A DNA stretch of 64,000 nucleotides from Corallococcus exercitus (GTDB lineage Bacteria; Myxococcota; Myxococcia; Myxococcales; Myxococcaceae). Position 1 is the first letter of the stretch. Each line of letters starts with the position of its first letter. Below are positions 38,301 through 53,710 of this stretch, piece after piece. Under the pieces are notes generated by a model. It was not told the DNA's origin. It saw only the letters and a program-made list of their open reading frames with translations, and searched no databases. Position numbers and translations under genes: made by a program. The stretch is from NCBI RefSeq assembly GCF_042231735.1, contig NZ_CP102577.1, positions 2,783,281 through 2,847,280 of the forward strand, read 5' to 3'.

Positions 38301-39691
38301 CGGCTGCGGCCGATGATGTCGCCCCGGCCCTTGACGAAGAGGCCGCGGCGCGTCTCCCCCAAGAGCCGGTACACCGGCACGGAGCGCGAGACGCCCTTCA
38401 GCTTCGCGTCCTCGACGAACTCGGTGGCGAAGCCACCCTGCCGCGAGCGCGTCTGGGTGTTGGCGCACAGGTGCACGCCGCCCTGGCGTCCGCCGTGCGT
38501 CATCAGGCGCGCGGCCATGTTCACGACCTCGCCCAGCGCCGAGTAGCCCTTGCGCGTGGGCGAGCCCATGTCGCCGCAGTAGGCGTGGCCGGTGGCGATG
38601 CCGATCTGCAGCTCGTCGAGGAACGGGAACTGCTCGCGCGCCTTGAGCAGCTTGCAGGCCAGCCGGCACGCCAGCACCTCCTTGTTCTGCTGGGCGGTGG
38701 GCGCGCCGAACAGGACGTAGAGGACGTTGCCCTTGTCCGTGAAGTCCGTCATCAGCAGCACGCCACCGTGGTGGGCGCTCTCGCGCTGGACGAACTCGTA
38801 GTAGGCGTTGAGGTCGCGGGTGAAGGCTTCTGGATCCGCGTCCGACGACGCGTGGGTGAAGCGCACGAAGAAGCAGGTGACGTCGCGGAAGTCGCCCGCG
38901 AACTCCTGGTGCGCGGTGGTGATCTTCGTGAAGAGCACCGGGTGCAGCAGCAGCGCGCACCGGCCCACCAGCTCCGCCCCGCCCGTGGGCGCGGGCAGCG
39001 GGCGCTTCACGGCCTCCACCGGCGCGTCGAGCGCCAGCCGGTGGTTGCCGCCGTCACGCGGCTCGCCCCGGCGCGCGGACTCCGGCAGCGCCGCCCAGGC
39101 CCGGGGGCTCAGGACGACCTCCGACACCGTGGCCTGCTTCTCCGCGCCCACCGCCTGCGCCAGCGGCTCGCCCACGAGCGCCGGGTGCATCCACAGGCCG
39201 GTGGCGCCCATCACGATGCGGGTCGCCTCCCCGAAGCCGATGCCGATGCGCGACGACACGCCGAAGCGCTGGCCCAACAGCTCCAGCCGGGCGAAGCGCG
39301 CGAGCCGGCGCTGCACGCCCAGCGCGCACACCGCCGCGCGCTGCACCACGTCGCCGTCCGCCTCGCCGGGCGCGGCCTCGAAGCACGCGAGGATGGAGTC
39401 ACCGGCGAACTGGTAGATGTCCCCGCCGTGGTCGCGGACCACGTCGATCATCTCCGTGTAGTAGTTCGTCAGCAGGCGCTGGAGCGCGTCGATGCCGCGC
39501 GGGCCCGCGCCGCTCAGCCCCACCACGATGGGCGTGAAGCCCGCGATGTCCAGGAGCAGGATGGCGCCCCGCACGCCTTCCGCCAGGGGCAGCGCGTCCG
39601 CCGCCTGGCTCCCGAGCCGCGCGAGGATGGCCGCCGGCACGTAGGGCGCCAGCGTCGCGACGACGGGGTCAATGGGCTGCGTGGAGGGCAT
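35390..39691 (-). CDS. multidomain signalling protein: two class-III adenylate/guanylate-cyclase-like domains, a STAND/AAA ATPase, and C-terminal TPR/helical repeats
   Basis: Cyclase-like segments (ILLLDIAGFT...YQFAGDSIL and a second FVRFTH...GDMGSP), a Walker A (VSGEAGIGKS), and a long helical-repeat C-terminus. About 1430 aa from MPSTQPID. Confidence 0.8.
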   Translation of the reverse strand: MPSTQPIDPVVATLAPYVPAAILARLGSQAADALPLAEGVRGAILLLDIAGFTPIVVGLSGAGPRGIDALQRLLTNYYTEMIDVVRDHGGDIYQFAGDSILACFEAAPGEADGDVVQRAAVCALGVQRRLARFARLELLGQRFGVSSRIGIGFGEATRIVMGATGLWMHPALVGEPLAQAVGAEKQATVSEVVLSPRAWAALPESARRGEPRDGGNHRLALDAPVEAVKRPLPAPTGGAELVGRCALLLHPVLFTKITTAHQEFAGDFRDVTCFFVRFTHASSDADPEAFTRDLNAYYEFVQRESAHHGGVLLMTDFTDKGNVLYVLFGAPTAQQNKEVLACRLACKLLKAREQFPFLDELQIGIATGHAYCGDMGSPTRKGYSALGEVVNMAARLMTHGGRQGGVHLCANTQTRSRQGGFATEFVEDAKLKGVSRSVPVYRLLGETRRGLFVKGRGDIIGRSRELNVLHESLTAAFAGQGRVCVVSGEAGIGKSRLGARVLEDAEEGGARALYGVCYSYEAFTPFFPWKEVLLQAFGLHDSDDTEAQLTRLRQGLEGLEDVGPEWIPVMAGILGMSLEETSATSGMDARRKQQKVFQIVFQLLESLSRAQPLLLFFEDLHWADYISLDLLQYLALRVGSHRIMVLATMRPGDQVKGLRELPEFLPVDLVSLDEEDTRALLRVHLRLSPPDVALEDRLLAKVQGNPFFIESIVEGLAEQGYLGLAEPGSTRMELKRGLQDLLLPDSIQDVVLSRIDLLSETEKLVVKVASVIGRIFTLDAVAALVPTLGAQRLREAMDTLQRLGLILLEQEEPYTCLFKHIVIRDVAYNTLLVSAREDLHRRLARYLEVRANDNLAASAGLLAFHFLAGNVEDKGLEYTLMAARSARAQYANDDALYHYNRGLELLGTVAPVDPEAMLLKTRRVMQELAETLLQAGHYANAILMFEQCLVDEEEPQRQAELHLGLGRAHQEKGESALATQHLEKSLVLRGRSLPRSLPALGLRTLANLLLRGLASLLPFILRPLPASRLGNYLQQLSTLNSLIRIYYFADIMKLTWATLVSTNMAERSRNDYAMSLARGYYGTLLFGAGLLKRARYHCEKALEYARRSKDPVAEGLALSRLGIQAFFANELQRAWEFQEEAVSTLRQVGERWERQTSLMMQATGEFLHSRFRTAEALYEQMKTIGVELNALMHQGWAHSWAPMCRYLLGEGDVGELCAELEQGLRISEEVADLANQCASLNHLANVTVREHQVEEAALVAVRCFKSIWSYQVLVPFLQVGLVDAAEAALFALEEGATVVPRKELLRIVRLSCIKARVIARLYPYLKGPALRVTARSLALRKGPKAAEPVFLEAIAVLEKSPNRWETGVAYFDAAVALPHRREAFLARAREIFTQVEARAELRRVDRFQAATQLPPAEALPLPQAAGARDARVM

Positions 39692-39708
39692 CCCCGGGGG
39701 CTTTCCGC

Positions 39709-40176
39709 TCAGGACAGGTTGGCGTAGCGCAGGTAGAGGGCGCCCAGGCACACGGCGCCGTAGAGGGGAATCTCCGCCGTCTCCGTCCAGGGCTGCTGCT
39801 TCATCACCGCGCCCCAGACGTGCACCGCCGTCATGATGCCGCCAATGAGGCCGATGAGCTCGAAGATGACCAGGTGGCTCTTGGGGTCCGGGATGAACTG
39901 CACCACCGCGATGATGACGGACAGCGCCAGGCCTCCCAGGCAGCGCGCGAAGTAGACCGTCAAGTCGTTGTTGCCCGTGGGCAGCTCCCACCCGAACCAG
40001 CGCGCCCAGCGCAGCGGCACGAACAGCAACGGCAGCGCGTAGACGACCGCGAAGACCGAGGTGGAGACCGCGAGGAACCAGCTGGCCAGCGGATAGTCGG
40101 GGTTGATCATGATGGCGGACGAGGCAAGGGCACCGGGCGTCCTGCTGCCGGGCGCACCCTGCCCCACGCTGTCCAT
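39709..40176 (-). CDS. small integral membrane protein (3-4 TM helices)
   Basis: Hydrophobic helices. The start may be MINPDY at about 40110. Confidence 0.45.
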   Translation of the reverse strand: MDSVGQGAPGSRTPGALASSAIMINPDYPLASWFLAVSTSVFAVVYALPLLFVPLRWARWFGWELPTGNNDLTVYFARCLGGLALSVIIAVVQFIPDPKSHLVIFELIGLIGGIMTAVHVWGAVMKQQPWTETAEIPLYGAVCLGALYLRYANLS

Positions 40177-40243: not shown

Positions 40244-40774
40244 CTAGCGGGTGGCGGCCAGGAGGAACTCGGCCACCCGCTCCAGGGAGGTGGTGCGCTC
40301 GGCTTCCGCCGGGAAGCGCCGGAAGGCCTCCGGGGGCCCGTGCAGGATGAGCGGCTTGCCATAGCGCAGCGCCAGGACGGCCTCCGCCGCGGTGCCCGCC
40401 CCTCCGGGTAGCGCGACCAGGGCGTGCGGCGTCAGCACGTTGATGTGGTTGCGGCTCATCGGGTCCGTGCCCTGCTCCCCGCTGAGCGGCAGGTGCGTGT
40501 AGATGGGGATTTCGATATCCGTGTTCGGGTAGCCGGGCCGGGGCTGGTACCGGCCATCCGCCCCGACAGTGCCGGGGATGATGCCGATGGCCGCCCCCCG
40601 CCGCCCCTCCACCTGGACGAAGGCCCCCGCCGCGACGCTCATGACGCCCCCGCCCGCGCCCGTCAGCAGGTCGAAGCCCGCCTCGGCAATCCACCGCGCC
40701 AGGGGGACGACCCACTCCTCGTGGGCCTCCGTGCCGGAGCCGAACACTCCGATGATGCGGCGGTGTCTGCGCAT
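40244..40774 (-). CDS. LOG-family (TIGR00725-like) Rossmann-fold protein
   Basis: GxGxxG (IGVFGSGT) and the PGGxGTxxE motif (LPGGAGTAAEAV) typical of LOG/YvdD-like proteins. Confidence 0.7.
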   Translation of the reverse strand: MRRHRRIIGVFGSGTEAHEEWVVPLARWIAEAGFDLLTGAGGGVMSVAAGAFVQVEGRRGAAIGIIPGTVGADGRYQPRPGYPNTDIEIPIYTHLPLSGEQGTDPMSRNHINVLTPHALVALPGGAGTAAEAVLALRYGKPLILHGPPEAFRRFPAEAERTTSLERVAEFLLAATR

Positions 40775-41414: not shown

Positions 41415-44400
41415 TCAGGGCACGTCCAGCGCGACGCCCTGTCCCGGCACGGCCATCACCCAGCGGACGACGTCCGGCTTGCCGCCGCAGGTGACGCGCA
41501 CCTCGAACTCACGCCCCGCGGGCATGGGGCTGGCGAGCGGCGTCTGGCCCTGGAGCACCTGCGAGCCCAGCGCCACGCGGCAGCCCTGGGCACCGGTGAC
41601 GCTGAGCGTGCCCCGGGCATCCGCCTGGGGCGCGGCGTCCGCGAGCGTGCGCAGGTCGATGTGCTCCGACTTCGGCACCTTGCCGAAGCGGTGCAGCTTG
41701 CCCTCCACGGCCGTGGAGACGAGCCAGCCGGAGGGGTCCTCCGGCAGGGCGTTGCTGCCTTCCAGCAGCACGCCGGACACGTAGACGCGCTCGCCCTCCT
41801 GGGCGTTGCGCACCTCCACGCCGCCCTTGGGCAGCAGGAACACCAGCGCGAGCCCCGCGAGCACCAGGCCCACGCCCCCCACGACGAGCCCCTTGCGCTG
41901 GCCGGACGTCAGCCCCTTCCCCGTCGCGTCGGCGGCGGGCACCTGGGCCGCGGGGGCGGCCACGGCGTGGACGGGCGGAGGAGGCGCGGCCACGGGAGCC
42001 GCCGGAGGGCGCACGGGCGCGGCCACGGGCGGCGGCGGCGCGGCCACGGGCGGCGGCGGCGAGGGGTGGTTCCCTCCATAGGCCGCGTGCGTGCCCGTCT
42101 GCGGCGGGTGGGCACTTCCCTGCGGCGGGGCCGCGTATTGCGCGTGGGTGCCCCCGTGCTGCGGATGGGCGGCCACGGGGGGAGGCGCCACGGCGGCCAC
42201 GGGGGGAGGCGGCGGGGCCGAGGTCAGGGGCGCCACGGAGGGCACCGACACCGACGGACGCGCGGGCGCCTGCGGCGGAGGCCCCACGCGCGTGGGCACG
42301 TTGGCGGCGGCCGCCGGGCGCACCGCGGTGGGCGGCGGCAGCGGTGACGCGGGCGGCGGCGCGGCCGGGCGCGACGGACGGGGCGCGGGCGCGGCGGCCA
42401 CGGGCGGGGAGGCCACCGGGGGCGCGGCGACGGGAGGACGTGTCGGATCCGAGGTGACGGAGACGACCTCGGTGCCGCGCTCGGCGGCCTCCGGCGGGGA
42501 GGCCACCGGGGGCGGCTCCATCCGGGGCATGCTGCCGGAACCGCCGCGCACGGGCGGACGGGACAGGTCCGACGGGGCGCGCATGTCGCTGCCGGAGCCC
42601 GTGCCCGGGGCGCGCGAGTGCGAGCCCGTCCCCGGCATCAGCGCCCGGGGGTTGGAGCCCGTGCCCGAGCCGGCGATGGACGACGGCGCGTACTCGGAGA
42701 GCCGGTCGCCCAGCGCCTCCTTGAAGAACTGCGCCACCGACGCGGGCGACGAGGACAGCCGGTGGTGCGCGATGACGGCTTCAATCTCCTCGCGCATCGC
42801 CGCCGCGGAGGGCGTGCGGCGCGCCGGGTCCTTCACCAGCGCGCGCAGGATGAGGTCCGACACGTCCTGCGGGATGTGGGGCCGCAGCTGCGAGGGCACC
42901 GGCGCGGGCTCGCGCACGATGGCCGCGAGCGTGGCCGCGTCGTGGTCGCGGCGGAACGGCAGCTGGCCGGTGAGCAGCTCGAAGAGCACCACGCCCAGCG
43001 CGAACACGTCGTTGCGCCAGTCCAGCGGACGGCCGCTGGCGGCCTCCGGGGAGAGGTACGAAATCTTCCCCTTGATGACGCCCGCCTGCGTCTGCTCCTC
43101 GCCCTGCACCTTGGCGATGCCGAAGTCCGACAGCTTGATGGCGCCGTCCAGCGACACCAGCACGTTGTGGGGGCTGACGTCGCGGTGCACCACCGGGTGC
43201 GCGGTGCCGGACGGGTCCACGTAGCTGTGCGCGTAGTGCAGGCCCGCGGCGACCTCCGCCACGATGCGCAGCGCGTGCTCCAAGGGCAGCGCCATGCCCT
43301 TGCGGCGCAGCTCCGTGAGCAGGCGCTTCAGGTCCGGGCCGCGCACGTACTCCATCAGGATGTACGCCACGCCGTCCGTCACGCCCACGTCGAAGGTCTG
43401 GACGATGTTGGGGTGCGTGAGGCGCGCGTTGGCGCGGGCCTCCGCGAAGAGCATGTCGACGAACTCAGGATTCTCAGCGAACTGCGCGAGAATCTTCTTC
43501 ATCACGACGAACTTCTCGAAGCCCTTCACGCCCTGCTGCTTGGCGAGGAACACCTCCGCCATGCCGCCCTGCCCCAGCCGGCGGATGATCTGCAGCCGCG
43601 CGCTGCCGCCGTGCACGTCCGTGGGCGACGTGCCCCGGGCGCCGGGGTCCGCGTTGGTGGAGCCGAAGAGGTACTGGCTGAGCGCGCGCTGCTCCAGCGC
43701 CTCGATGTCGTCCAGCGGCTTGTCGGTGAGCGGCGTGCGCGCGAGCAGCCCCTGGAACTGCGCGAGCGCCGGAGCCCGGGCGCTGCCGCCGCAGACGGGG
43801 CACACGCGGTCCAGGGTGCCCTTGGCGCGCAGCACCTCCAGGTACTCGTTGGTCTGGATGCGCTGGTGGGTGACCTGGCCGCAGTTGCGGCAGTCGCACG
43901 GCAGCCACAGCGTGGCCAGCTTCGCCGGCAGCGCCTTGGTGGACTTCGCCAGCACGCCCAGCAGCGGCGGCGGCACGCGGCAGAGCACCACCTGGGCGCC
44001 CTGCGACGCCACCTCCAGCACCTGTTCGATGCGCGGCAGCGCCTCCGGCTCCACCGTGCTCACGTGGCAGCAGTCGAACGCGACGCGCCCCTCCAGGCCG
44101 GACGCCAGCCGGCGCACGTTGAGGTCGCCCTTGAGCGTGCTGGCCAGGGTGATGAAGGTGATGTCGTCCTGGACGATCTTCAGGTGCGAGGACAGCTCGG
44201 ACGGCTCGTTCGGGAGGCCCGCGCGCAGGTAGCGCAGCACGGCGGGGTCCACCGCGGAGAACTGCTGGCGGCGCGCGAAGTCGAAGAACTCCGTGGGCTC
44301 GTCCGCGAACTCCAGCGGCTGGGCGCACACGGGGCAGTGGTGCGGCGGGGCACCGCCCGCCTCCACGACCTTGCTCTCCTCCACCAGGCGGACCAGCCGC

Positions 44401-44753
44401 AGCCGGTCCTCCTTGCAGAAGCGGCACGAGTACGGCGCCAGCAGCGAGAGCACGCGCGCGACGCCCGCGAAGCCCTCCACCATGTTGAGCTGATCCACCA
44501 CCACCGGCGGTGCGTTGACGACGTACAGCCCCGACACGCCCTGCGGCGGGTGGCCGGCGAACTCAATCCACCGGCGGACCCCGAAGGAGCTGATGCGCTC
44601 CACCAGCCCCAGGTCCACCACCACCAGGCCCTGGAGGCCCTTGGACGCTGGCGAGAGGGGGAAGGTTTCGTCGATCACCCCGGCCACGCGCACGTGGGTC
44701 AGACTGCCCACGCGCAGGGAGGTGATGCTGGCATTGGAAGTTTGGCTCTCCAC
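41415..44753 (-). CDS. membrane Ser/Thr protein kinase with an N-terminal STAS (anti-sigma-factor antagonist-like) domain, two zinc-ribbon repeats, a Pro-rich linker, a TM helix and a C-terminal periplasmic domain
   Basis: The STAS pattern is VVVDLGLVERISSFGVRRW...LYVVNAPPVVVDQL. There are two Cx2C...Cx2C modules. Kinase motifs are a Gly loop (LGQGGMAEVF), the invariant Lys (VVMKKIL), a catalytic loop (HRDVSPHN), DFG and SPE. A TM helix (LVVGGVGLVLAGLALVFLL) separates the C-terminal domain. Confidence 0.8.
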   Translation of the reverse strand: MESQTSNASITSLRVGSLTHVRVAGVIDETFPLSPASKGLQGLVVVDLGLVERISSFGVRRWIEFAGHPPQGVSGLYVVNAPPVVVDQLNMVEGFAGVARVLSLLAPYSCRFCKEDRLRLVRLVEESKVVEAGGAPPHHCPVCAQPLEFADEPTEFFDFARRQQFSAVDPAVLRYLRAGLPNEPSELSSHLKIVQDDITFITLASTLKGDLNVRRLASGLEGRVAFDCCHVSTVEPEALPRIEQVLEVASQGAQVVLCRVPPPLLGVLAKSTKALPAKLATLWLPCDCRNCGQVTHQRIQTNEYLEVLRAKGTLDRVCPVCGGSARAPALAQFQGLLARTPLTDKPLDDIEALEQRALSQYLFGSTNADPGARGTSPTDVHGGSARLQIIRRLGQGGMAEVFLAKQQGVKGFEKFVVMKKILAQFAENPEFVDMLFAEARANARLTHPNIVQTFDVGVTDGVAYILMEYVRGPDLKRLLTELRRKGMALPLEHALRIVAEVAAGLHYAHSYVDPSGTAHPVVHRDVSPHNVLVSLDGAIKLSDFGIAKVQGEEQTQAGVIKGKISYLSPEAASGRPLDWRNDVFALGVVLFELLTGQLPFRRDHDAATLAAIVREPAPVPSQLRPHIPQDVSDLILRALVKDPARRTPSAAAMREEIEAVIAHHRLSSSPASVAQFFKEALGDRLSEYAPSSIAGSGTGSNPRALMPGTGSHSRAPGTGSGSDMRAPSDLSRPPVRGGSGSMPRMEPPPVASPPEAAERGTEVVSVTSDPTRPPVAAPPVASPPVAAAPAPRPSRPAAPPPASPLPPPTAVRPAAAANVPTRVGPPPQAPARPSVSVPSVAPLTSAPPPPPVAAVAPPPVAAHPQHGGTHAQYAAPPQGSAHPPQTGTHAAYGGNHPSPPPPVAAPPPPVAAPVRPPAAPVAAPPPPVHAVAAPAAQVPAADATGKGLTSGQRKGLVVGGVGLVLAGLALVFLLPKGGVEVRNAQEGERVYVSGVLLEGSNALPEDPSGWLVSTAVEGKLHRFGKVPKSEHIDLRTLADAAPQADARGTLSVTGAQGCRVALGSQVLQGQTPLASPMPAGREFEVRVTCGGKPDVVRWVMAVPGQGVALDVP
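41950..42215 (-). repeat. in-frame tandem nucleotide repeats encoding a Pro/Ala/Val-rich linker of the kinase
   Basis: A perfect 21-bp tandem repeat (gcggccacgggcggcggcggc, twice, at 42019-42060) and near-repeats (ggccacggggggaggcg, twice, around 42171-42211). Confidence 0.7.
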
Positions 44754-44757
44754 CCGC

Positions 44758-45603
44758 CTACCCTCGTTCCAGACAGAACAGCAGCGACTTGGGCTGCGCG
44801 GCCCGGCGGCGCGCGTCCCCCAGGTCCACCGCGCAGGCGAACTGGGTCCGCTTCCCCGGAGTCACCCGCACCGCGACCGCGTCGCTGTGCTCCAGGATGC
44901 GCCGCAGACCCAGGCCCGCGCCACCACCCGAAGCATCCACCTGCGCCTTCTCACCCCACGCCTTCACCACCCGCACCAGCGGTGACACCGACAGGCGGCC
45001 GAAGCGATCCGTCGCCTCCAGCCAGGCCCGGCCGTCCGCCACCGCCCAGGACAGCAGGCAGCGATCCTCCTCCGCCACCGACTGCACCTGTCCGCGCCGG
45101 TGGGCGTACTTCGGCTCGCCGCCCGCGTCCACCGGCGCGTCGAGCAGTGCGTTCACACCAATCTCATGGACGACATCCGCCACCCGGCTGGCCGCCGCCT
45201 TGGAGCCGCCGGCCTGGAGGACGCCTTCCGCCGCGCGCTCCCCCGCCGCCGTCACCTCCGCGACACTGCCCAGCCACGCCACCGACGTGGCGGCTTCCCG
45301 GGGAATCATGGGCTCGCCGCGCAGGAGCGCGCCGAGCAGCCGCGCCTCCCAGGCGGACGGCTGGCCGCCCTCACCGCGCGTGGCCAGGAGCAGCGCCGGG
45401 GGCTGCCGCTCCAGGAGCGCCGCGTGGGCGGGGGTGAACCGCCCGTCGAACAGCACCAGGTGCGGCGCCGCGTCGTCACCGCGCCCCAAAAGGACGCCGT
45501 CCCGGGCCAGCACCCCGGAGGCCTTCTCCAGCGCCTCCGGCGTGAGCGTCGTGTCCGGCGTCAACTTCAGGGGGGCATCCTTCACGGCGGCGACGGTATC
45601 CAC
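44758..45603 (-). CDS. two-domain protein with a C-terminal GHKL ATPase resembling RsbW/SpoIIAB (anti-sigma factor / protein serine kinase)
   Basis: N-box-like (VHEIGVNALLDA), D/G1-like (VADGRAWL), G2 (SGGGAGLGLRRIL) and a following beta strand (AVAVRVTPGKRTQFACAV), in the same order as RsbW. 4 nt from the kinase gene. Confidence 0.5.
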   Translation of the reverse strand: MDTVAAVKDAPLKLTPDTTLTPEALEKASGVLARDGVLLGRGDDAAPHLVLFDGRFTPAHAALLERQPPALLLATRGEGGQPSAWEARLLGALLRGEPMIPREAATSVAWLGSVAEVTAAGERAAEGVLQAGGSKAAASRVADVVHEIGVNALLDAPVDAGGEPKYAHRRGQVQSVAEEDRCLLSWAVADGRAWLEATDRFGRLSVSPLVRVVKAWGEKAQVDASGGGAGLGLRRILEHSDAVAVRVTPGKRTQFACAVDLGDARRRAAQPKSLLFCLERG

Positions 45604-45609
45604 AGCGCT

Positions 45610-48213
45610 CTAATAATGCAGTCGAACTTCGGTGAAGACGCCCAGCGGGGGGGCGGGGAAGCCGTGGGACTCCTCGTACTTCGCGTTGAAGAGGTTGGTG
45701 CCCAGCAGGGACACGGCCACGCGCTCGTGGACGTTGAAGCCCACGCGCGCGGTCGCGGTGATGTAGCTGGGCAGCTTCACGCGGGTGGTGGTGCCGGCGA
45801 TCTCATCCACCACGAAGCCCGGGTCGAAGCGCGGGCCCACGAACAGGCCGTACAGCTCCACGAAGGCGAACTTGCCGATGTTGGTGCGGCCGCGCAGGTA
45901 GACGCGGTGGGTGGGCGCGTAGTCCAGCGGGTAGCTGGCCCCGCCGCCCACGGGCAGCGCCTCGGCGTCCAGGAACTGGTAGGCCACGTCGAAGGACGAG
46001 TTGAGGGCCGGCACCTGCGCCGCGGCCTCCGCCTCGAAGCCCGCCACGCGCGCGTCGCCCAGGTTCTTGAACTGGGACGTGGAGCCGAAGAGGAGCTCCT
46101 GGTTGATGAAGTTGCGGGCGCGGTTGTAGAAGCCGGTGCCCGTCAGGCGCACCTTGCGGTCGAACGGCCAGAAGTCCACCGCCGCCTCCACCGTGTCCAG
46201 CGTCTCCGCGCGCAGGGCCGGGTTGCCCAGGAGCGTCGCCGCGTACATCTGCTGGTTGATGGCCAGCTCCGCCAGCGTGGGCGCGCGGAAGGCGCGGCCG
46301 TAGTTGGTGCGCAGCGTGAGCAGCTCCGGGATGGCGTGGAACACGACGCTGGCGCGCGGGGACACCTGGTCCGTCTTCGCCTCCCAGACCTTGGAGGGGA
46401 TCTGGTAGTTGTCGTAGCGGGCGCCCGCGCCCACCACCAGCCGCTCCGTGACGCGGTACTCGGCGTCCACGAAGCCGCCCAGGATGGTCTGCTTCGTGTC
46501 GTCCAGGGTCAGGCCGGGCAGCACGTTCTGGTTGTTCACCTGGTCGGCCTTCACGTCGCCGCCCACGGTGACGGACAGCTTGTCCAGGGAGAACAGCGCG
46601 CGCGCCTCACCGCCCAGGCGGCTGCGCTTGCCCAGCGTGTCCTCGAGCGCGCCGGTGATTTCGTTCTCCAGCGTCACGTTGCGGCGCTTGAAGAACGTGT
46701 AGGCCTGGGCGAACACGCGCACGTTGTCCGTCACCTGCTGATCCAGCTGCAGGGCGGCGTTCAGGTTCTGGACGTGCTCGTTGTCCTGCGCGGTGTAGTG
46801 GCAGCGGCCGCAGTTGCCCACGGTGGAGATGTTCTGGCCACCGGGCCGGCCGATGTTGCCGTCGGTGAAGTCCGCGTCCAGGGCGAGGGGCCCCACGCGG
46901 ACCTTGCCGTTCACCTGGTGCACCAGCGAGTCCTCGTTGGTGTCCGTCTGGCCCAGCTGCTGGTTGTTGAAGAGCTGCGGGCCGTCCGAGCCGAAGCCGT
47001 AGTAGCCGAGCAGCGCCTCCACCGGACCGCCGCGGCCGGCGACGTTGGTCTGCAGGCGCCACGTCTTGTCCTGGCCCGCGAGGATGCGCGCGTCGGCGCC
47101 CACGTTCTGGCCCTTGGCGATGAGGTCCGCGGGCTGGCGCTCGATGATGTTGATGACGCCGCTGAAGGCGTTGGAGCCGTAGAGCGACGAACCCGGGCCG
47201 CGGATGACCTCCACCTGCTTGAGGTTGGTCATCGGCGTCGTCTCATCCGCGTAGAACTGGCCCGTCCAGGGGTCCGTCAGCGGACGGCCGTCCTTGAGGA
47301 GCAGCAGGCGGTTGGACAGGTAGTTGGAGCCCAGGCCGCGCGCGCTCACCGCCGCCTTGCGCATGGAGCCCCGGCGGCACTCCATGCCGGGGAAGTACTG
47401 GATGGCCTCGCAGAGCGAGAACTGGCCGGTGCCCTCCAGCTCCTCCGCCGGAATCCAGGACACCGTGAGGGGCACGTCGGAGATGCGCTGGCTGCGCTTG
47501 GACGCCGTGGTGACGACGGCCTCGCTCAGCGCCAGGTTGATGTTCTTCTCCAGGTCGTCGCCGCCGCCCAGGTCCGGGCCGTCCAGGCCGGAGAGGCTGG
47601 AGGGCGGAGGCAGCGCGCGGTCCGTGGTGGGCTCCGTGAAGGGCGCGCGGTCCGGGACGTTGTCGGCCGTCCGGGGCTGCGACGACGGCAGCACCGCGCC
47701 CGTGCCCAGCGCCGGCGCGGGCGGCGGGTTGGACGGGATGTCGGTCATCAGCGGCCCGTCATAGGGCGACGTCGAGGCAGGCGTCCCGGGCGAGGCCACG
47801 GGCAGCGGATCCGCCACGGACGGGCCGACGCCAGGGCCGGCCACCGGGGCGGGCGGCGCGGGCGGCGGCTCGGTGGCGAGCACCGGCTCCTGCGGGGCGG
47901 GCGCGTCCGCGGGAATGGGCTCCGGCTCCACCGGCGGAGGCGGCGTCTTCGCGCCCCGGCGCGTCTTCGCCGTGCGCGGAGGCTTCGCCCCCGGAGTGGC
48001 GGCCTTGGCGCCCGGCGGGGTGGCCGCGCGCTTGCGGGAGGCCTTCGTCCGCGTCTTGGGAGCAGGCTCCTGGGCCTCCTGGGCCTGGGCCGTCTCCACC
48101 GCGAACAGCGACAGCGCGCAGACCACCAGCGTGAGGCATGCGCGCGCGCCCAGCCGGCCGGCAAACCCCTTCACCGCGCTGGTGCGCGGCCCACCGTACT
48201 CAGTCGAGTCCAT
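45610..48213 (-). CDS. TonB-dependent outer-membrane receptor with a long disordered N-terminal extension
   Basis: Signal peptide, then ~200 aa of Lys/Pro/Ala-rich low complexity. Plug domain (TonB-box-like ALSEAVVTTAS, RGPGSSLYGSNAFSGVINI) and a long beta-barrel. The start may be 48297. Confidence 0.8.
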   Translation of the reverse strand: MDSTEYGGPRTSAVKGFAGRLGARACLTLVVCALSLFAVETAQAQEAQEPAPKTRTKASRKRAATPPGAKAATPGAKPPRTAKTRRGAKTPPPPVEPEPIPADAPAPQEPVLATEPPPAPPAPVAGPGVGPSVADPLPVASPGTPASTSPYDGPLMTDIPSNPPPAPALGTGAVLPSSQPRTADNVPDRAPFTEPTTDRALPPPSSLSGLDGPDLGGGDDLEKNINLALSEAVVTTASKRSQRISDVPLTVSWIPAEELEGTGQFSLCEAIQYFPGMECRRGSMRKAAVSARGLGSNYLSNRLLLLKDGRPLTDPWTGQFYADETTPMTNLKQVEVIRGPGSSLYGSNAFSGVINIIERQPADLIAKGQNVGADARILAGQDKTWRLQTNVAGRGGPVEALLGYYGFGSDGPQLFNNQQLGQTDTNEDSLVHQVNGKVRVGPLALDADFTDGNIGRPGGQNISTVGNCGRCHYTAQDNEHVQNLNAALQLDQQVTDNVRVFAQAYTFFKRRNVTLENEITGALEDTLGKRSRLGGEARALFSLDKLSVTVGGDVKADQVNNQNVLPGLTLDDTKQTILGGFVDAEYRVTERLVVGAGARYDNYQIPSKVWEAKTDQVSPRASVVFHAIPELLTLRTNYGRAFRAPTLAELAINQQMYAATLLGNPALRAETLDTVEAAVDFWPFDRKVRLTGTGFYNRARNFINQELLFGSTSQFKNLGDARVAGFEAEAAAQVPALNSSFDVAYQFLDAEALPVGGGASYPLDYAPTHRVYLRGRTNIGKFAFVELYGLFVGPRFDPGFVVDEIAGTTTRVKLPSYITATARVGFNVHERVAVSLLGTNLFNAKYEESHGFPAPPLGVFTEVRLHY

Positions 48214-48447
48214 CGTTCTCAATTCCACGAGGGGAAGCAGGGATGTCCGCGGTCCGTGCGCCAGGATCCAGAGCCGGTGCGACTGGCAATCGTCCACAGG
48301 GGCGAGTTTCCGCCCCTGAACGGTGGCGTTCCGCTCGACTTCTCAAACTACCGCAATAACTCACCTAAGGCCAAGTCGTGGCTGTCGATCCAGGCAAATC
48401 ACGCGAACGGCGGCGGGAGCGCCGCGCGCGGATCAGCCACGGCGCAA

Positions 48448-49374
48448 TCAGTCATCCGGCTGTTCAGCGGACACGGCCAGGTCGTCCGCGAACGGCGGCA
48501 GCGCGGGACCCAGTGACTCGGACTGCACGAGCACGGGCGTCTCCACCCGCAGGTCGGGGGCGTCCGCGAGGACGGGCTGGCGGCGTGGGGGGCCCTGGGT
48601 GACGAGCTTGCGGAAGTCCTCGAACTCGCGGCCCTGGATGCGGGCGAAGGCGTCGAACGGGGCGACCACACCCACGGAGGACAGGGACTGGGACAACGCG
48701 TCCCCCCCGCCCTTCAGGTCCACCAGCACGGCGCCCGGCACCCGGACGCTCTTGAAGAGCACCCGCATGTCCCTGGGCACGTGCGCCACCGGCACGAGCG
48801 CGGCCTCCGCGCCCTTCGCCTCCAGCATCTTCACCGCCGACTCCACGTTGGGCACCGGCACCAGCTTGAAGTGCTTCTGGGCATCCAGGTCGCCGCCCAG
48901 CACGACGTGGGAGACGAACTTCGGATCCGCGGGGCCCGCGCCCTTCACCAGCGCCATGCGCTTGCCGGCGAGGTCCTTCACGGTGCCCTTCTGGGTGGAG
49001 ATGATGGCCCAGCGCTGCTGCGTCTCACCGGCGCGCGGCGCGTACGCCACGGGCTGCGCCTTGGCGCCCAGCTGCACCGCGGCCCAGCCGTCCACCACGG
49101 CGAAGTCGATCTGCCCCTCCCCCACCGCCTTGGAGAAGTCCTCGTAGCGGCCGAAGCTCTTGGCGCCCACGGGGCGGCCCAGGCTGGCCTCCAGCTTCTG
49201 GGCCAGGGCCTCCGCGTACTGGAAGCGCTCCTGGCCGTCCGACAGCGTGGTGGCGAGGAACACGCCCAGCGTGGCCTTCTTCGGCGCGGCGGACGCGGGA
49301 CGGGAGATGACAACGGAGAACAGCACGGCGGCGAGCAGGAGGCTCCCCCGCGCGACAAGGGATGGCGTCTTCAC
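48448..49374 (-). CDS. periplasmic PhnD/SsuA-like substrate-binding protein
   Basis: Signal peptide and type-2 periplasmic-binding fold features. It overlaps the TPR gene stop by 4 nt. Confidence 0.65.
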   Translation of the reverse strand: MKTPSLVARGSLLLAAVLFSVVISRPASAAPKKATLGVFLATTLSDGQERFQYAEALAQKLEASLGRPVGAKSFGRYEDFSKAVGEGQIDFAVVDGWAAVQLGAKAQPVAYAPRAGETQQRWAIISTQKGTVKDLAGKRMALVKGAGPADPKFVSHVVLGGDLDAQKHFKLVPVPNVESAVKMLEAKGAEAALVPVAHVPRDMRVLFKSVRVPGAVLVDLKGGGDALSQSLSSVGVVAPFDAFARIQGREFEDFRKLVTQGPPRRQPVLADAPDLRVETPVLVQSESLGPALPPFADDLAVSAEQPDD

Positions 49375-51896
49375 GGCGTCTCCTCCGCGACCCCGGTGGC
49401 CGGCGTGACGCCCTGTGCGTCACCCAGTCCATGGAGGCCCTGCAGGCGGTCCTTCCATTCACGCACCTGGGCGGCGCGGGTGCCCGCGCCGGAGGCCAGG
49501 TAGCGGCGCCAGGCCTCCACGGCCTCGGCGGGTTCATGCCGGCGCTCCTGCGCGTCGATGCCCAGGTTGAGCGAGGCGACGGGCACGGCGGTCTCCAGGC
49601 GCTTCCACGTCGCGAGCGCGGAGGCCGCTTCGCCCTGGCGCCAGTCCACGCACGCCAGGTTGTGCTGCACCAGCGCGTCGTCGGGCGTCGCGGCGAGCGC
49701 GGCCTTCAGCGCCTTCTCCGATGCCCTCATGTTGCCGGAGGCGTACGCGAGCGCCGCCTCGCGGCGCAGCAGCGCGCCGGTGAGGTGGCCCATCCACTTC
49801 GGCTGTCCGGGCATGGGCTTCTTCTGCGCGGCGGTGAGCAGCTTGCGCGCGGGCGCGACCTTGCCCTGGCGGTAGAGCACCCACGCGTCCGCGAGCGCGC
49901 GCGTGTTGGGCCACGCCCACTCCGGCGCCGGGGTGAGCGAGCGCTTGAGGCCGGCGGAGGCCTCCGCGAACCGCCCTTCTTCCGCGCGCGTGAGTGCCCG
50001 GGCGAAGGTGGCCAGCTTCGCCAGGTCCGTGCGCTTGCCGGTGCCCAGGCGGTCCACCGCGTCCAGGTCCCGGTTCGCCGCGGCCGCGTCGCCGGCCTCC
50101 AGCTTCGCCAGGGCCCGGCGCACCAGCACGCGGGGCAGGTTCGCCTCCGCCACCTTCGAGGCCGTCTTGGAGGGCCCCGCGTCCGTCAGCCGCTGCACGG
50201 CGGCGTCCACCTGGCCCAGCTCCACCTCCGCGAGCGCGGCGCCCGCGGACGCCTCCGCGCGCTGATCCGGCTCCTGCGTGGCCTCGCCGGACTGGGTGAA
50301 GGCGGCGAGCGCTCCTTGCGCGTCGCCACTGCCCAGCCGCGCGTAGCCCAGGAGCAGGTGCTCGCGCCAGGTCGCGCCCGGCAGCGTCACCGCGCCCTCC
50401 AGCACCTTGCGGGCCTCCGCGTACTGGTGGCTGTCCAGCAGCGCCGCGCCCAGGCGGCGGGCCATGGGGACGGAGCGGTCCAGGTCGTAGGCGCGGCGCA
50501 GGTCGCGCACGGCGTCGTCCAGGCGCTGCGTGCCGGCGCGGTCGCGTGCGCGGTGCGCCAGCGCCCGGGCCAGCCACTGCTTCGCGCCGGGGTGGCCGGG
50601 TTCGACCTGGAGCGCGCTGCCGTAGTCCTCGATGGCCTGGTCCCACTGGCCGGTGGCGAAGTGATCCGCGCCCAGCAGCATCCAGCCCAGCGCCTGGCGC
50701 GGGGCCATCTCCACCACGCGCCGGTGCACCTCCACCGCTCGCTGGTAGCGGCCGGCGCGGCGGTTGACGGAGCCCAGCGTCGCCCACAGCTCCAGGCTGC
50801 CGCCGCCCGTCTTCACCGCGGACTCCAGGAACTGGATGGCCTCCTCGTGGCGCGCCTGCGCCTGGAGCGCCTTGCCCACGGCGATCTGCCCCAGGAGCAG
50901 GCCCGGCTGCAGCTCCAGCACCTTGCGGAACTCCGCCTCCGCCTGCGCGGGCTGCTTCTGCGCGAGCCGCACGTCACCCAGCAAGAGGTGCGCGGCGGGC
51001 GTCGAGCCCAGCTTCATGAGCGCGGTGGCCTGGAGGTCCGCGCGCGGCACGTCGCCCGCGGCGAGGTACTGGCGCGCGAGGCGCTCCTTGGGCTCCGCCG
51101 CCTGCGGGTACTTCGTCACCAGCCGCTCCAGCAGCGCGCGGGCCTCCGGCACGCGGCCCTCCAGCTCCAGCACGGCGGAGAGGCCGATCTGCGCGGTCGC
51201 GGACTCGGCGCGGCCGGCCTGCGCCTTCTCGAAGGAGGCGCGCGCGGCGACGGCGTCGCGGCGGATGAGGTGCGCCTTGCCCAGCAGCTCGTGGATCTGG
51301 AAGTCGTTGCCCGCGAGCTTCTCCGGGCGCAGCACCAGGTAGCGCTGCAGCCGCGTCACGGCGCGGTTCCCGTCCTGGACGTAGAGGTAGTAGCTGGCCA
51401 GGTAGTAGTGGACGATGAGGTGGTCGGGCTGATCCGCGGCGGCCACCTGCTCCAGCACCGGCACGGCCTCCGGGAAGCGGCGCAGCTTGAAGTACGCCGT
51501 GCCCAGCGGGTACGCGAGCGACAGCTCCGACGGGTTCTGCGCGAACACCGGCTGGAGGCGGGCCACCGTGCGCTGGAAGTCCTGGAGCGCGTTGGCGGCG
51601 CTGCCCAGGCCCGCGGCGGCGTACACGGACTGCGGCTCCTGCGCGAGCGACTGCTCGAAGAGCTGGAGCGCCTTCTTGAACTTCTCCTCTGCCTCCTGCT
51701 TGTCGCCCTTGGAGAGGGCGGCGTTGGCGGACACAAGGGCCTGTTCGCCCTGCACCGTCATGCGCTGCGCCTCGGTGGCGGGCGGCGGGCGGAACTGGGC
51801 GAGCGCCGTCGGCGGGCCGGCCAGGGTGGCCAGCAGGACGAGCGCGGTGGAGACGCGGCGCGGGGAGCGGATGAATGGGCGCATGCGGTTCGTCAC
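49371..51896 (-). CDS. periplasmic TPR-repeat protein (841 aa)
   Basis: Signal peptide, then ~20 TPR-like helical repeats. It overlaps the upstream phosphatase gene by 4 nt. Confidence 0.75.
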   Translation of the reverse strand: MTNRMRPFIRSPRRVSTALVLLATLAGPPTALAQFRPPPATEAQRMTVQGEQALVSANAALSKGDKQEAEEKFKKALQLFEQSLAQEPQSVYAAAGLGSAANALQDFQRTVARLQPVFAQNPSELSLAYPLGTAYFKLRRFPEAVPVLEQVAAADQPDHLIVHYYLASYYLYVQDGNRAVTRLQRYLVLRPEKLAGNDFQIHELLGKAHLIRRDAVAARASFEKAQAGRAESATAQIGLSAVLELEGRVPEARALLERLVTKYPQAAEPKERLARQYLAAGDVPRADLQATALMKLGSTPAAHLLLGDVRLAQKQPAQAEAEFRKVLELQPGLLLGQIAVGKALQAQARHEEAIQFLESAVKTGGGSLELWATLGSVNRRAGRYQRAVEVHRRVVEMAPRQALGWMLLGADHFATGQWDQAIEDYGSALQVEPGHPGAKQWLARALAHRARDRAGTQRLDDAVRDLRRAYDLDRSVPMARRLGAALLDSHQYAEARKVLEGAVTLPGATWREHLLLGYARLGSGDAQGALAAFTQSGEATQEPDQRAEASAGAALAEVELGQVDAAVQRLTDAGPSKTASKVAEANLPRVLVRRALAKLEAGDAAAANRDLDAVDRLGTGKRTDLAKLATFARALTRAEEGRFAEASAGLKRSLTPAPEWAWPNTRALADAWVLYRQGKVAPARKLLTAAQKKPMPGQPKWMGHLTGALLRREAALAYASGNMRASEKALKAALAATPDDALVQHNLACVDWRQGEAASALATWKRLETAVPVASLNLGIDAQERRHEPAEAVEAWRRYLASGAGTRAAQVREWKDRLQGLHGLGDAQGVTPATGVAEETP

Positions 51897-53710
51897 GGCG
51901 TGGGGGCGGGGCTGAATTCGGCGACGATGACGGTGATGTCGTCGCGCTGGGGCTGGCCGGCGCTGTACGCGCGCACGTCCGCGAGGAGCGCGTCGCGAAG
52001 GGCGTCGGCGGGAAGGTGCGCGTGGGTCTGGAGCGCGGCGGCCAGGCGCTGCGTGCCGTAGAGGCGGTTGGCGCCGTCGCGCGCCTCGGTGAGGCCGTCC
52101 GTGTACCAGACGATGATGTCACCGGGGCTCAGCTGCGCCTGGCGCGACGTGAACTGCGAGGCGACGTTCGCGCCCAGCAGCGGGCCGCGCGCCGGCAGCG
52201 ACGCCATCTGCCGCGTGTTCCGGTTGTAGATGGCCGCCGCCGGGTGGGCGCCCGCCGCGTAGTCGATGCTGCCGCTGTACACGTCGATGACCGCGAGCGC
52301 GCTGGACATCTGGTGCTCGCCGCGGCCCACGTTGGCCAGCGTCACGTTGAGCGCGGTGATGAGCATCTGCGCGTGCACCTGCGACGGCTCGCGCAGCGTC
52401 ATCGCGGAGGCGAAGCCGCTGGTGGCGCTGGTGGCGACCAGCGACGTGGACAGGCCGTGGCCCGTCACGTCTCCAATGCCAATGACGACGCGCCGGTCGT
52501 CCAGCGCGGCGCGGAACCACCAGTCGCCGCCGCACGCGTCCGCGGGCACCACCAGCCCGGCGAGCCGCAGCGGGCCCACCGTCACGGCCTCTCGGCCCGG
52601 CAGGAGCGTCTCCTGCACGGTGCGCGCGAGCGACACCTCGCGCTCCAGCTGCGCCTTGGCGCGCACGTCCTCCAGGAGGACCTTGATGCGCTCCGCCATG
52701 TGGTTGAACACCACGCCCAGCGTCGTCACTTCACGGCCCGCGCCCGGCGCCGTGCCCGCGCGGGCGCCCAGGTCACCGGCGGCCAGCTGCATCACGCGGT
52801 GGGTGAGCACGCCCAGCGGCTTGGTGATGCGGCGGCTCTGGAAGGCGGCCAGCACGCCGGCCAGCACCACGAAGCCCACGCCCAGGCCCACGATGCGCAG
52901 CGTGTTGGCGCGCACCGCGGCGCGGTTGGTCTCCTCCAGTTCGTGCAGCTGCTTCTGCAGGTCCTCCAGCGAGTAGCTGATGACGACCACGCCCTTGCCG
53001 CCCTGCGAGCCGTAGTCGAGCGGCTCCTGGAACTCGAAGACGGGCTGGCCGTTGAAGAAGGCGCTGGCCCAGCGGCGCTCCGCGGTGCGGCCCCCGGAGG
53101 ACTCCCCCAGCTTGGCGGCCGGGTCGCTGTCCGCGACGAGCTGCCCGTCCGCGTCGAACATCTGCACGCGCAGGATGTTGCGGTTGTCCGCGATGATGGA
53201 GCGCGCGACCTCCGTGAGGAACGCGTAGTTGTTGTCGCGCAGGCTGGTGGCGGAGGTGAGCGCCAGCGTGTGGCTCACCGTCTGGCCCAGCTCGCGCGCC
53301 TGGGACTGCAGCCGCTGCGTGAACCGGTCCGACGTCGCGGTGAGCTGCGCCTCCGTCGTCTTCGCCGACAGCGCGGCCAGGAGGCCCACGATGATGATGA
53401 CCAGCGCGCCCGTGGTGAGCAGCAGCAGCTGATCCAACCGCAGCCCACGGATGGCCGCCACGTTGGGCAGCTCTCCGGCCTCCATGGGCGCGATGACCGT
53501 GCTCGTGGGCTCCGCGGCCGGCAGCCCCAGCGCCCCGGTCAGCCGGGTGGCCGTGTTCTCCCCGCGCAGGGCGGTGAGGTCCCGGGAGTGGGTGCCCGTG
53601 TACTCCGGCGGAGGGGGCGGGGTGCCAGGCCCTGCGTCGTGGGAATCTCCGGACGCATCGGGGGAATCTGGCACGGGGTCGAGGCGCGTGTTCGTACGGG
53701 ACAAAGGCAA
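51893..53710 (-). CDS. membrane sensor PP2C/SpoIIE-family protein Ser/Thr phosphatase (RsbU-like) with a periplasmic domain and HAMP
   Basis: Two TM helices flank a ~200-aa periplasmic domain, followed by a HAMP-like linker. The PP2C motifs are present (GGDWW, GDVTGHG, VWYTDGLTEA, DDITV). Confidence 0.8.
   Translation of the reverse strand: MPLSRTNTRLDPVPDSPDASGDSHDAGPGTPPPPPEYTGTHSRDLTALRGENTATRLTGALGLPAAEPTSTVIAPMEAGELPNVAAIRGLRLDQLLLLTTGALVIIIVGLLAALSAKTTEAQLTATSDRFTQRLQSQARELGQTVSHTLALTSATSLRDNNYAFLTEVARSIIADNRNILRVQMFDADGQLVADSDPAAKLGESSGGRTAERRWASAFFNGQPVFEFQEPLDYGSQGGKGVVVISYSLEDLQKQLHELEETNRAAVRANTLRIVGLGVGFVVLAGVLAAFQSRRITKPLGVLTHRVMQLAAGDLGARAGTAPGAGREVTTLGVVFNHMAERIKVLLEDVRAKAQLEREVSLARTVQETLLPGREAVTVGPLRLAGLVVPADACGGDWWFRAALDDRRVVIGIGDVTGHGLSTSLVATSATSGFASAMTLREPSQVHAQMLITALNVTLANVGRGEHQMSSALAVIDVYSGSIDYAAGAHPAAAIYNRNTRQMASLPARGPLLGANVASQFTSRQAQLSPGDIIVWYTDGLTEARDGANRLYGTQRLAAALQTHAHLPADALRDALLADVRAYSAGQPQRDDITVIVAEFSPAPTP

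Follow-up and report, generated by a model that had tools for sequence, protein, structure and literature searches.

Gene organization of the locus

The 64,000-nucleotide stretch of Corallococcus exercitus DNA analyzed here, referred to below as the window, contains at 44758-45603 on the minus strand a gene for a two-domain protein of 281 amino acids (aa), recognized from the list of open reading frames (ORFs), the sequence and its homologues, and orthologous to MXAN_4558 of Myxococcus xanthus. The product, called the target protein below, was studied together with that of the next gene downstream, a 1112-aa STAS-kinase (41415-44753, minus strand; MXAN_4557 in M. xanthus). The two genes close a block of six co-directional genes with a spacing of -4 to 150 nucleotides (nt), encoding in this order a phosphatase, a TPR protein, a binding protein, a TonB receptor, the target protein and the STAS-kinase. 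Structure prediction and remote homology pointed to the target protein as a diverged relative of the RsbW/SpoIIAB kinases. Its likely STAS partner is fused to the downstream kinase, and a eukaryotic-like kinase, not a sigma factor, is probably what the resulting switch controls.

The G+C content of the window was 65-75%, and long ORFs were present in all frames. The frame of the target gene, which runs from a GTG start to a TAG stop codon, was regarded as real because it has conserved homologues (153 at E <= 1e-3, best 1e-165, in a search of 5.8 billion proteins) and invariant alignment columns (31 in an alignment of 44 orthologues). This bore out the 281-aa ORF proposed in an earlier annotation made from the letters alone, hereafter the sequence-only reading. 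The nearest homologues were Corallococcus proteins with 95-98% identity, and the organism-named matches among those listed were all from Myxococcota. Long ORFs on the opposite strand, such as that of 939 aa at 42618-45437 (plus strand), were dismissed as a by-product of the 72% G+C, given the hundreds of conserved homologues of the proteins encoded on the minus strand. The start codon was ambiguous, an alternative GTG being located at codon 7 (window 45585), where the NCBI records of close orthologues begin.

Between the TAG codon and the GTG that starts the kinase gene lie 4 nt (GCGG), and a GAGGG sequence is located 7 nt upstream of this GTG, inside the 3' end of the target ORF. The short gap and the GAGGG fit the translational coupling that had been asserted for the two genes, which is plausible rather than established. 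A literature search found no mention of MXAN_4557 or MXAN_4558, and only catalogue mentions of the neighbouring genes.

Predicted fold and nucleotide-binding motifs of the target protein

Pfam and NCBIfam scans of the target protein gave no match (Pfam E <= 1). Among the 44 orthologues, Pfam detected no HATPase_c_2 domain, and HATPase_c only weakly in 2 of the 44 (E 0.075). A search of the PDB by the single sequence or by the orthologue profile also gave no meaningful match. The sequence-only reading had named a HATPase_c_2 search as the check on its assignment of a GHKL ATPase, and the outcome of that search, taken by itself, spoke against the assignment; structure and remote homology reversed the verdict.

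The structure of the target protein was predicted with AlphaFold2 from a 44-row alignment (pLDDT 89.7, pTM 0.89). The predicted structure matched SpoIIAB, RsbW and SiaB as well as the CA domains of histidine kinases, and was nearer to the anti-sigma kinases than to the CA domains. Foldseek returned as the best structural matches SpoIIAB (in complex with sigma-F; E 8.7e-6, TM-score 0.72-0.75 on the target), UsfX and RsbW. The hidden Markov model search of 1.84 billion cluster representatives collected 1,864 relatives at E <= 1e-3, some remote members of which reached or approached the HATPase_c_2 and HATPase_c models. One of them, P0217, scored 27.5 bits against the HATPase_c_2 (PF13581) cut-off of 27.4, alone among the 10 remote relatives scanned. 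When a profile was made from 28 distant relatives, its top PDB matches were all GHKL proteins (E ~0.01), with the G1 and G2 boxes aligned.

The predicted GHKL (Bergerat-fold) domain of RsbW/SpoIIAB type spans aa 105-281 (44761-45291, minus strand; narrower span ~105-262). Its N-box, VHEIGVNALLDA (aa 145-156, 45136-45171), contains the invariant residues E147, N151 and D155. The first two, the N-box Glu and Asn (Mg2+ ligand), were invariant in the 44 orthologues and 28 remote relatives, and corresponded to E46 and N50 of SpoIIAB in an alignment of weak score with SpoIIAB. The N-box is followed by a conserved, family-specific loop of 26 residues with the pattern APVDxxGxPxYAHRR (156-170). The G1 box, DRFGRL (aa 199-204, 44992-45009), has an invariant Asp, D199, and an invariant G202, with the atypical glycine pattern D-x-F-G instead of DxGxG. 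D199-R-F-G202 is placed directly after the second strand of a hairpin and aligned with the DxGxG of PhoR, CpxA and GRP94. The G2 box or ATP lid, SGGGAGLGLRRIL (aa 225-237, 44893-44931), carries the invariant stretch G226-G-G-A-G-L-G232 of GxxGxG form, which aligned with GGSGLGL of PhoR. D199, G202 and G226-G232 were also invariant throughout the 44 orthologues and the 28 distant relatives. The protein ends in a basic tail, RRRAAQPKSLLFCL (aa 265-278, 44770-44811), in which R265-R267, K272 and S273 are invariant; in the model it finishes with a beta-strand (273-278), and its pattern RRRxxxPKSLLF is retained in the wider family. The 26-residue loop after the N-box, the DxFG-type G1 and this basic tail are, judged from the alignments, the hallmarks of the family.

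As for the three motifs in the sequence-only reading, the N-box and G2 assignments held, both containing invariant residues, and that of G1 did not. The segment VADGRAW (188-194) taken for G1 is the variable turn of the hairpin formed by strands 182-189 and 192-199, and the G1 position is D199-R-F-G202. The fold, the motifs and the remote relatives agreed with the C-terminal RsbW/SpoIIAB-like core claimed there. According to the model, the C-terminal two-thirds of the target protein is an RsbW/SpoIIAB-type GHKL ATP-binding domain, and the whole protein is a strongly diverged relative of RsbW and SpoIIAB that standard domain searches miss. Because it falls below the HATPase_c_2 threshold and nothing suggests an anti-sigma function, it was not counted as a strict member of the RsbW family, and was filed as a diverged new branch of the RsbW-type GHKL proteins.

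The N-terminal domain (aa 1-104, 45292-45603, minus strand) was predicted as an alpha/beta domain with the order beta-alpha-beta-alpha-beta-alpha in the AlphaFold2 secondary structure. Its conserved residues are G54, H60, L71-A74, R76 and the helix P82-x-x-W85-E86. The PxxWE motif is invariant also in the wider family, where the domain is longer (~130 aa). No Pfam family was found for it in the target protein, the 44 orthologues or 12 remote relatives. That this part holds no recognized motif had been stated before, and the Pfam result agreed; the size of ~130 aa given there is corrected to ~105 aa, the GHKL domain beginning at about residue 105. A sensory role, also suggested there, found no backing, as no ligand-binding family matched and nothing marks a ligand sensor.

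A receiver domain was considered as well, and was not supported: there was no Response_reg match in the same set of proteins and no receiver signature, and the candidate phospho-acceptor residues D53 and T75 are not conserved. The sole hint of a receiver was a loose full-length Foldseek alignment of the target protein to the REC-GHKL protein LvrC of Leptospira (PDB 9qih; receiver plus GHKL-like, ~295 aa). LvrC is similar in size, but the superposition was poor (root-mean-square deviation ~21 A), and the N-terminal domain of the target protein, unlike that of LvrC, lacks a receiver signature. At best, the domain is receiver-like. A two-domain protein, presumably cytoplasmic, is the best explanation of these data.

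The tandem STAS-zinc ribbon module of the downstream kinase

The STAS-kinase consists of STAS1, a zinc ribbon, STAS2, a second zinc ribbon, a Hanks-type Ser/Thr kinase domain, a Pro-rich linker, a transmembrane helix (955-974) and an extracytoplasmic C-terminal domain of ~140 aa beyond the membrane. Its first 330 residues are thus two repeats of a STAS domain followed by a CxxC...CxxC zinc ribbon. STAS1 (aa 1-105, 44439-44753, minus strand) contains the motif R-I-S55-S56-F-G, with the Ser56 codon at 44586-44588. The first zinc ribbon (44304-44438) has the invariant cysteines C110, C113, C140 and C143 and gave weak matches to zinc-ribbon families of Pfam. The second repeat (43764-44192) was delimited by the repeat in the model and by alignment, and comprises STAS2 (aa 188-280, 43914-44192) and a zinc ribbon with C288, C291, C318 and C321 (43764-43913). 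The Hanks-type catalytic domain (aa 385-660, 42774-43601) was detected by Pfam Pkinase with an E value of 4e-42, and its catalytic motifs are intact, including K418 (in VMKK), HRD523 and DFG543.

Word-index homologue searches with the N-terminus of the kinase returned only 9-11 proteins, and residues 1-380 were modelled from a shallow alignment of 12 rows. The model (pLDDT 81) showed a STAS fold whose secondary structure is repeated in STAS2. Pfam STAS_2 matched 16 of 18 kinase orthologues (best E 1.9e-8); the copy of the window, taken on its own, scored below the cut-off (E 3.4e-4). The profile and the model confirmed that, as the sequence-only reading had proposed, a STAS domain is fused to the product of the next gene. 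Tandems of STAS domains and zinc ribbons are not known to have been described as a module.

Ser56 was invariant in STAS1 of the orthologues and, in the model, opens helix 56-67, which comes after the third strand. The serine that is phosphorylated in SpoIIAA, Ser58, occupies the same position, in an S-x-G register. Ser56 begins the second STAS helix and is the predicted phospho-acceptor. In STAS2 the serine is replaced by V-E235-P-E, as in all orthologues ('VEPEA', 'VELEG'), so that this copy is not phosphorylatable at the serine position. This second copy may be 'phosphomimetic' at all times, or unable to switch.

Conservation of the gene block

The four genes upstream of the target gene are all on the minus strand. 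The first product is a membrane phosphatase of Cache-like-HAMP-SpoIIE (PP2C-type) architecture (51893-53710; Pfam SpoIIE E 1e-38, HAMP 4e-9). It is followed by a secreted TPR protein (49371-51896), whose gene has 4-nt overlaps with both neighbours, by a periplasmic solute-binding protein of the Phosphonate-bd family with a signal peptide (48448-49374), and by a TonB-dependent outer-membrane receptor (45610-48297), recognized by Pfam Plug and barrel matches, whose gene ends 6 nt ahead of the target gene. A Pro/Ala/Lys-rich extension of ~270 aa precedes the plug of the receptor (aa 1-270, window 47488-48297), with no match to STN or any other Pfam family. The start codon of the receptor gene may be further downstream; the M. 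xanthus orthologues likewise have 859-917 aa. A scan of the operon for promoters and terminators found nothing beyond the level of shuffled sequences.

One co-directional block thus encodes an RsbW-like protein together with a STAS protein and a phosphatase of SpoIIE type, and this triad was conserved over ~60 genomes. The genome scan returned 60 loci, and linkage was counted in the 53 of 64 fetched loci that had sequence downstream of the gene; in all of them (53/53) the target gene was directly followed by the STAS-kinase gene. The four upstream genes were conserved across Myxococcaceae and Archangiaceae. A distant metagenome-assembled genome (MAG) from groundwater (44% identity) retains the target/kinase pair, with an SBP_bac_8 binding protein and a HAMP-HisKA-HATPase-REC-REC-SpoIIE protein encoded directly upstream of it. 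Just upstream of this hybrid kinase-SpoIIE gene, the same MAG carries a nucleotidyltransferase/HEPN toxin-antitoxin-like pair (L003 1750-2501). No linked sigma factor gene was found in the window, and none was present in the six-gene block, the ~60 genome loci or the metagenome loci of paralogues.

The phosphatase orthologue of M. xanthus, MXAN_4562, is the sole SpoIIE-like phosphatase of that genome, and in Sorangium STAS domains fused to eukaryotic-like kinases have been noted, with no RsbW-like partner identified there (PMC2887360). The receptor orthologue MXAN_4559 was detected in the outer membrane vesicle proteome of M. xanthus (PMC4158809), which suggests that the gene block is expressed.

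The surroundings downstream of the kinase gene varied. In the window, a gene for a 176-aa SLOG cluster4 (LDcluster4, lysine-decarboxylase-like) protein is located 640 nt downstream (40244-40774, minus strand), and its conservation there was limited to certain genera (Corallococcus coralloides, Hyalangium). It is followed, ~1.4 kb downstream of the kinase gene, by that for a 1533-aa STAND-like protein with adenylate/guanylate cyclase, AAA_16 and TPR domains (35390-39991, minus strand). Genes with Lant_dehydr_N (lanthipeptide dehydratase) domains come after the kinase gene in M. xanthus (L001/L002 12063-16843), and are not found there in the Corallococcus window.

Wider family and natural fusions

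The family of the target protein comprised ~1,860 cluster representatives in Myxococcota. Distant relatives sharing ~30% identity with the target protein were used to scan metagenomes, which gave 80 loci, 59 of them with at least 600 nt downstream. A double STAS-zinc ribbon gene started within 300 nt of the GHKL gene in 30 of the 59, a SpoIIE-domain gene was found downstream of it in 12, and the STAS-zinc ribbon gene was upstream in three; in total, a STAS-zinc ribbon or SpoIIE gene adjoined the GHKL gene in 45/59 and neither was a neighbour in the other 14. Among the loci flanked by 3 kb on both sides, a Hanks kinase was fused or located within 3 kb in 15 of 16, and the far flanks contained three kinase genes per 116 kb. 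In one subgroup of the metagenome loci (L087, L086 and L078), the GHKL gene was followed by a SpoIIE-domain gene and then by one or two genes with FIST domains.

The STAS-zinc ribbon module was not confined to Hanks kinases. It was also found fused to a transmembrane segment and a PDZ domain (L066:7185-9599; 33% identical to the module of the window, RISSFG retained), and behind a FIST domain (L068:4774-7188). Of 50 related modules, 47 carried the STAS serine within [ST]-S-[FY]-G, the remaining three being repeats of STAS2 type.

Two natural fusions were identified. P0149, found on two independent contigs, consists of a STAS-zinc ribbon module followed by a full target-like protein, in the order opposite to that of the genes and with no Hanks domain, and P0255 joins Cache-HAMP-GAF-SpoIIE to a target-type GHKL domain. 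These fusions support a functional coupling of the components. A third candidate, P0153 (444 aa, 513-kb contig), which appeared to join the target protein to the N-terminus of the kinase, was rejected as it has a scrambled middle and looks like a frameshift or sequencing error.

In L094 and L149 (~8.6-13.3 kb), two paralogous genes of the GHKL family are interleaved with three Hanks kinase genes, with no match to the STAS-zinc ribbon module. This arrangement suggests that, in such a variant, kinases are the sole partners of the family.

Discussion

We consider it rather likely that the three proteins form a partner switch in which the target protein is the kinase of the STAS domain, the SpoIIE phosphatase its antagonist and the Hanks kinase the output. 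The target protein would be the switch kinase, and its STAS partner would be the tandem STAS-zinc ribbon module of a receptor-type Hanks kinase, not a free anti-anti-sigma factor. It would bind unphosphorylated STAS1 and pass the gamma-phosphate of ATP to Ser56, upon which the complex would be released. The Cache-HAMP-SpoIIE phosphatase of the operon would strip the phosphate from Ser56, presumably in response to a periplasmic signal that arrives via the TonB-dependent receptor, the solute-binding protein and the TPR protein. The state of STAS, bound or free, would then set the activity or the assembly of the fused Hanks kinase, and in the paralogous systems it would set the PDZ or FIST outputs. 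In a GHKL dimer, the non-phosphorylatable STAS2 could remain permanently tethered to the second protomer, and the N-terminal domain of the target protein might dock on STAS2 or a zinc ribbon, or mediate dimerization.

Several observations weigh against this partner switch. The structure of the target protein is a prediction, and neither Pfam, NCBIfam nor any PDB sequence recognizes the protein itself. Its G1 box is DxFG rather than DxGxG and a conserved loop of 26 residues follows the N-box, so that catalytic competence is not to be assumed. Some distant members of the family adjoin Hanks kinases without STAS, and the constant partner of the family could be the Hanks kinase instead of STAS. 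A Hanks kinase can phosphorylate a STAS protein, as documented for PknD and Rv0516c (PMC1847690), and the fused Hanks domain might itself be the Ser56 kinase. Many of the metagenome loci came from a few orthologous groups, and their counts therefore overstate independence; they amount to three or four independent architectures at the least, rather than 59 separate events.

A rival account is that the target protein is a non-catalytic clamp, binding ATP and STAS with no phosphotransfer and acting as a stoichiometric inhibitor or activator, while the Hanks domain phosphorylates Ser56 in cis or in trans and SpoIIE reverses this. The atypical G1 with the long insertion after the N-box would suit such a clamp, as would the PknD/Rv0516c precedent and the proximity of Hanks kinases in 15/16 of the well-flanked metagenome loci, compared with the low background in the far flanks. 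We nevertheless regard it as unlikely, since every residue that binds Mg-ATP in GHKL kinases (E, N, D and those of the Gly-rich lid) is kept without exception throughout a very wide family, as expected of an active enzyme, and RsbW-type proteins are established kinases of the STAS serine position.

The genuine anti-sigma factors among the best structural matches (SpoIIAB with sigma-F, UsfX and RsbW) would be compatible with a classical arrangement, in which the target protein sequesters an unlinked sigma factor, the STAS-kinase is merely an anti-anti-sigma factor and the output is transcription. The lack of a linked sigma gene in the six-gene block, the ~60 genome loci and the metagenome loci of paralogues makes this quite improbable, together with the fusion of the STAS module, in every case, to a domain of effector type (kinase, PDZ or FIST) and the presence of an N-terminal domain and a C-terminal tail, neither of which occurs in anti-sigma factors. 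We give just as little weight to the target protein being a substrate or adaptor of the Hanks kinase, with its N-terminal domain phosphorylated by or docked on the kinase domain as the constant partner and the GHKL domain in some other ATP-dependent role: distant members do have STAS-less Hanks kinases of 412-418 aa as immediate neighbours, and those of L094 and L149 are interleaved with kinase genes, but a STAS-zinc ribbon protein of FIST or PDZ type usually also adjoins the GHKL gene in the same distant loci, and the STAS-zinc ribbon::GHKL fusion P0149 has no Hanks domain.

The partner switch proposed here shares with SpoIIAB/SpoIIAA/SpoIIE, which controls sigma-F in Bacillus, the order of N-box, hairpin, G1 and G2 in the GHKL protein, a partner of STAS fold whose second helix begins with a serine, and a SpoIIE-family phosphatase as the antagonist. 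In contrast to SpoIIAB, the target protein has no HATPase_c_2 match, shows only ~16% identity to it, and has an additional N-terminal domain of ~105 aa, the 26-residue loop, the DxFG-type G1 and the basic C-terminal tail. The STAS domain differs from SpoIIAA in belonging to a tandem STAS-zinc ribbon module fused to a Hanks kinase, and no sigma factor gene is linked. The same differences apply to RsbW/RsbV/RsbU (sigma-B) and the mycobacterial UsfX/RsfB, from which the present system is further distinguished by a phosphatase that is a membrane Cache-HAMP sensor encoded together with a TonB receptor and a periplasmic binding protein. The closest likeness in enzyme output and HAMP-PP2C input is to SiaA/SiaB/SiaC/SiaD of Pseudomonas aeruginosa. 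Unlike in Rv1364c of Mycobacterium tuberculosis, a fused RsbU-RsbW-RsbV, and in HsbR/HsbA of Pseudomonas, the RsbW-like kinase is here a separate protein of another sequence family, and STAS is fused to the Hanks kinase. For PknD/Rv0516c of M. tuberculosis, a receptor Hanks kinase has been documented to be functionally linked to a STAS anti-anti-sigma homologue (PMC1847690); in that case the STAS protein phosphorylated by the Hanks kinase is a free one, whereas here the STAS domain is fused and a dedicated RsbW-like protein and SpoIIE are co-encoded. The parts themselves are of known kinds, and what is new is the family, the tandem STAS-zinc ribbon cassette and their wiring to a receptor Hanks kinase.

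A broader proposal, which we put forward tentatively, is that the large unnamed GHKL family of Myxococcota, the tandem STAS-zinc ribbon module and a fused or adjacent Hanks kinase constitute a distinct device, in which partner switching may gate eukaryotic-like Ser/Thr kinase signalling, PDZ or FIST outputs in place of a sigma factor. The two STAS repeats might occupy two GHKL protomers, one as the tether and the other as the phospho-switch. In Myxococcus and Corallococcus, the device might link TonB-dependent uptake, and the sensing of a periplasmic ligand by the sole SpoIIE phosphatase, to a receptor Hanks kinase.

Myxobacteria have ~100 Hanks-type kinases each. The locus predicts a concrete circuit, open to testing, that would control one conserved member among the receptor kinases (MXAN_4557 in M. 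xanthus), provides a candidate substrate for MXAN_4562, the one SpoIIE-like phosphatase that M. xanthus has, and gives a proposed function to 'hypothetical proteins' that domain databases miss. Partner switching would thereby extend to outputs fused directly to STAS, namely Hanks kinase, PDZ and FIST domains, with the tandem STAS-zinc ribbon module as a reusable regulatory cassette.

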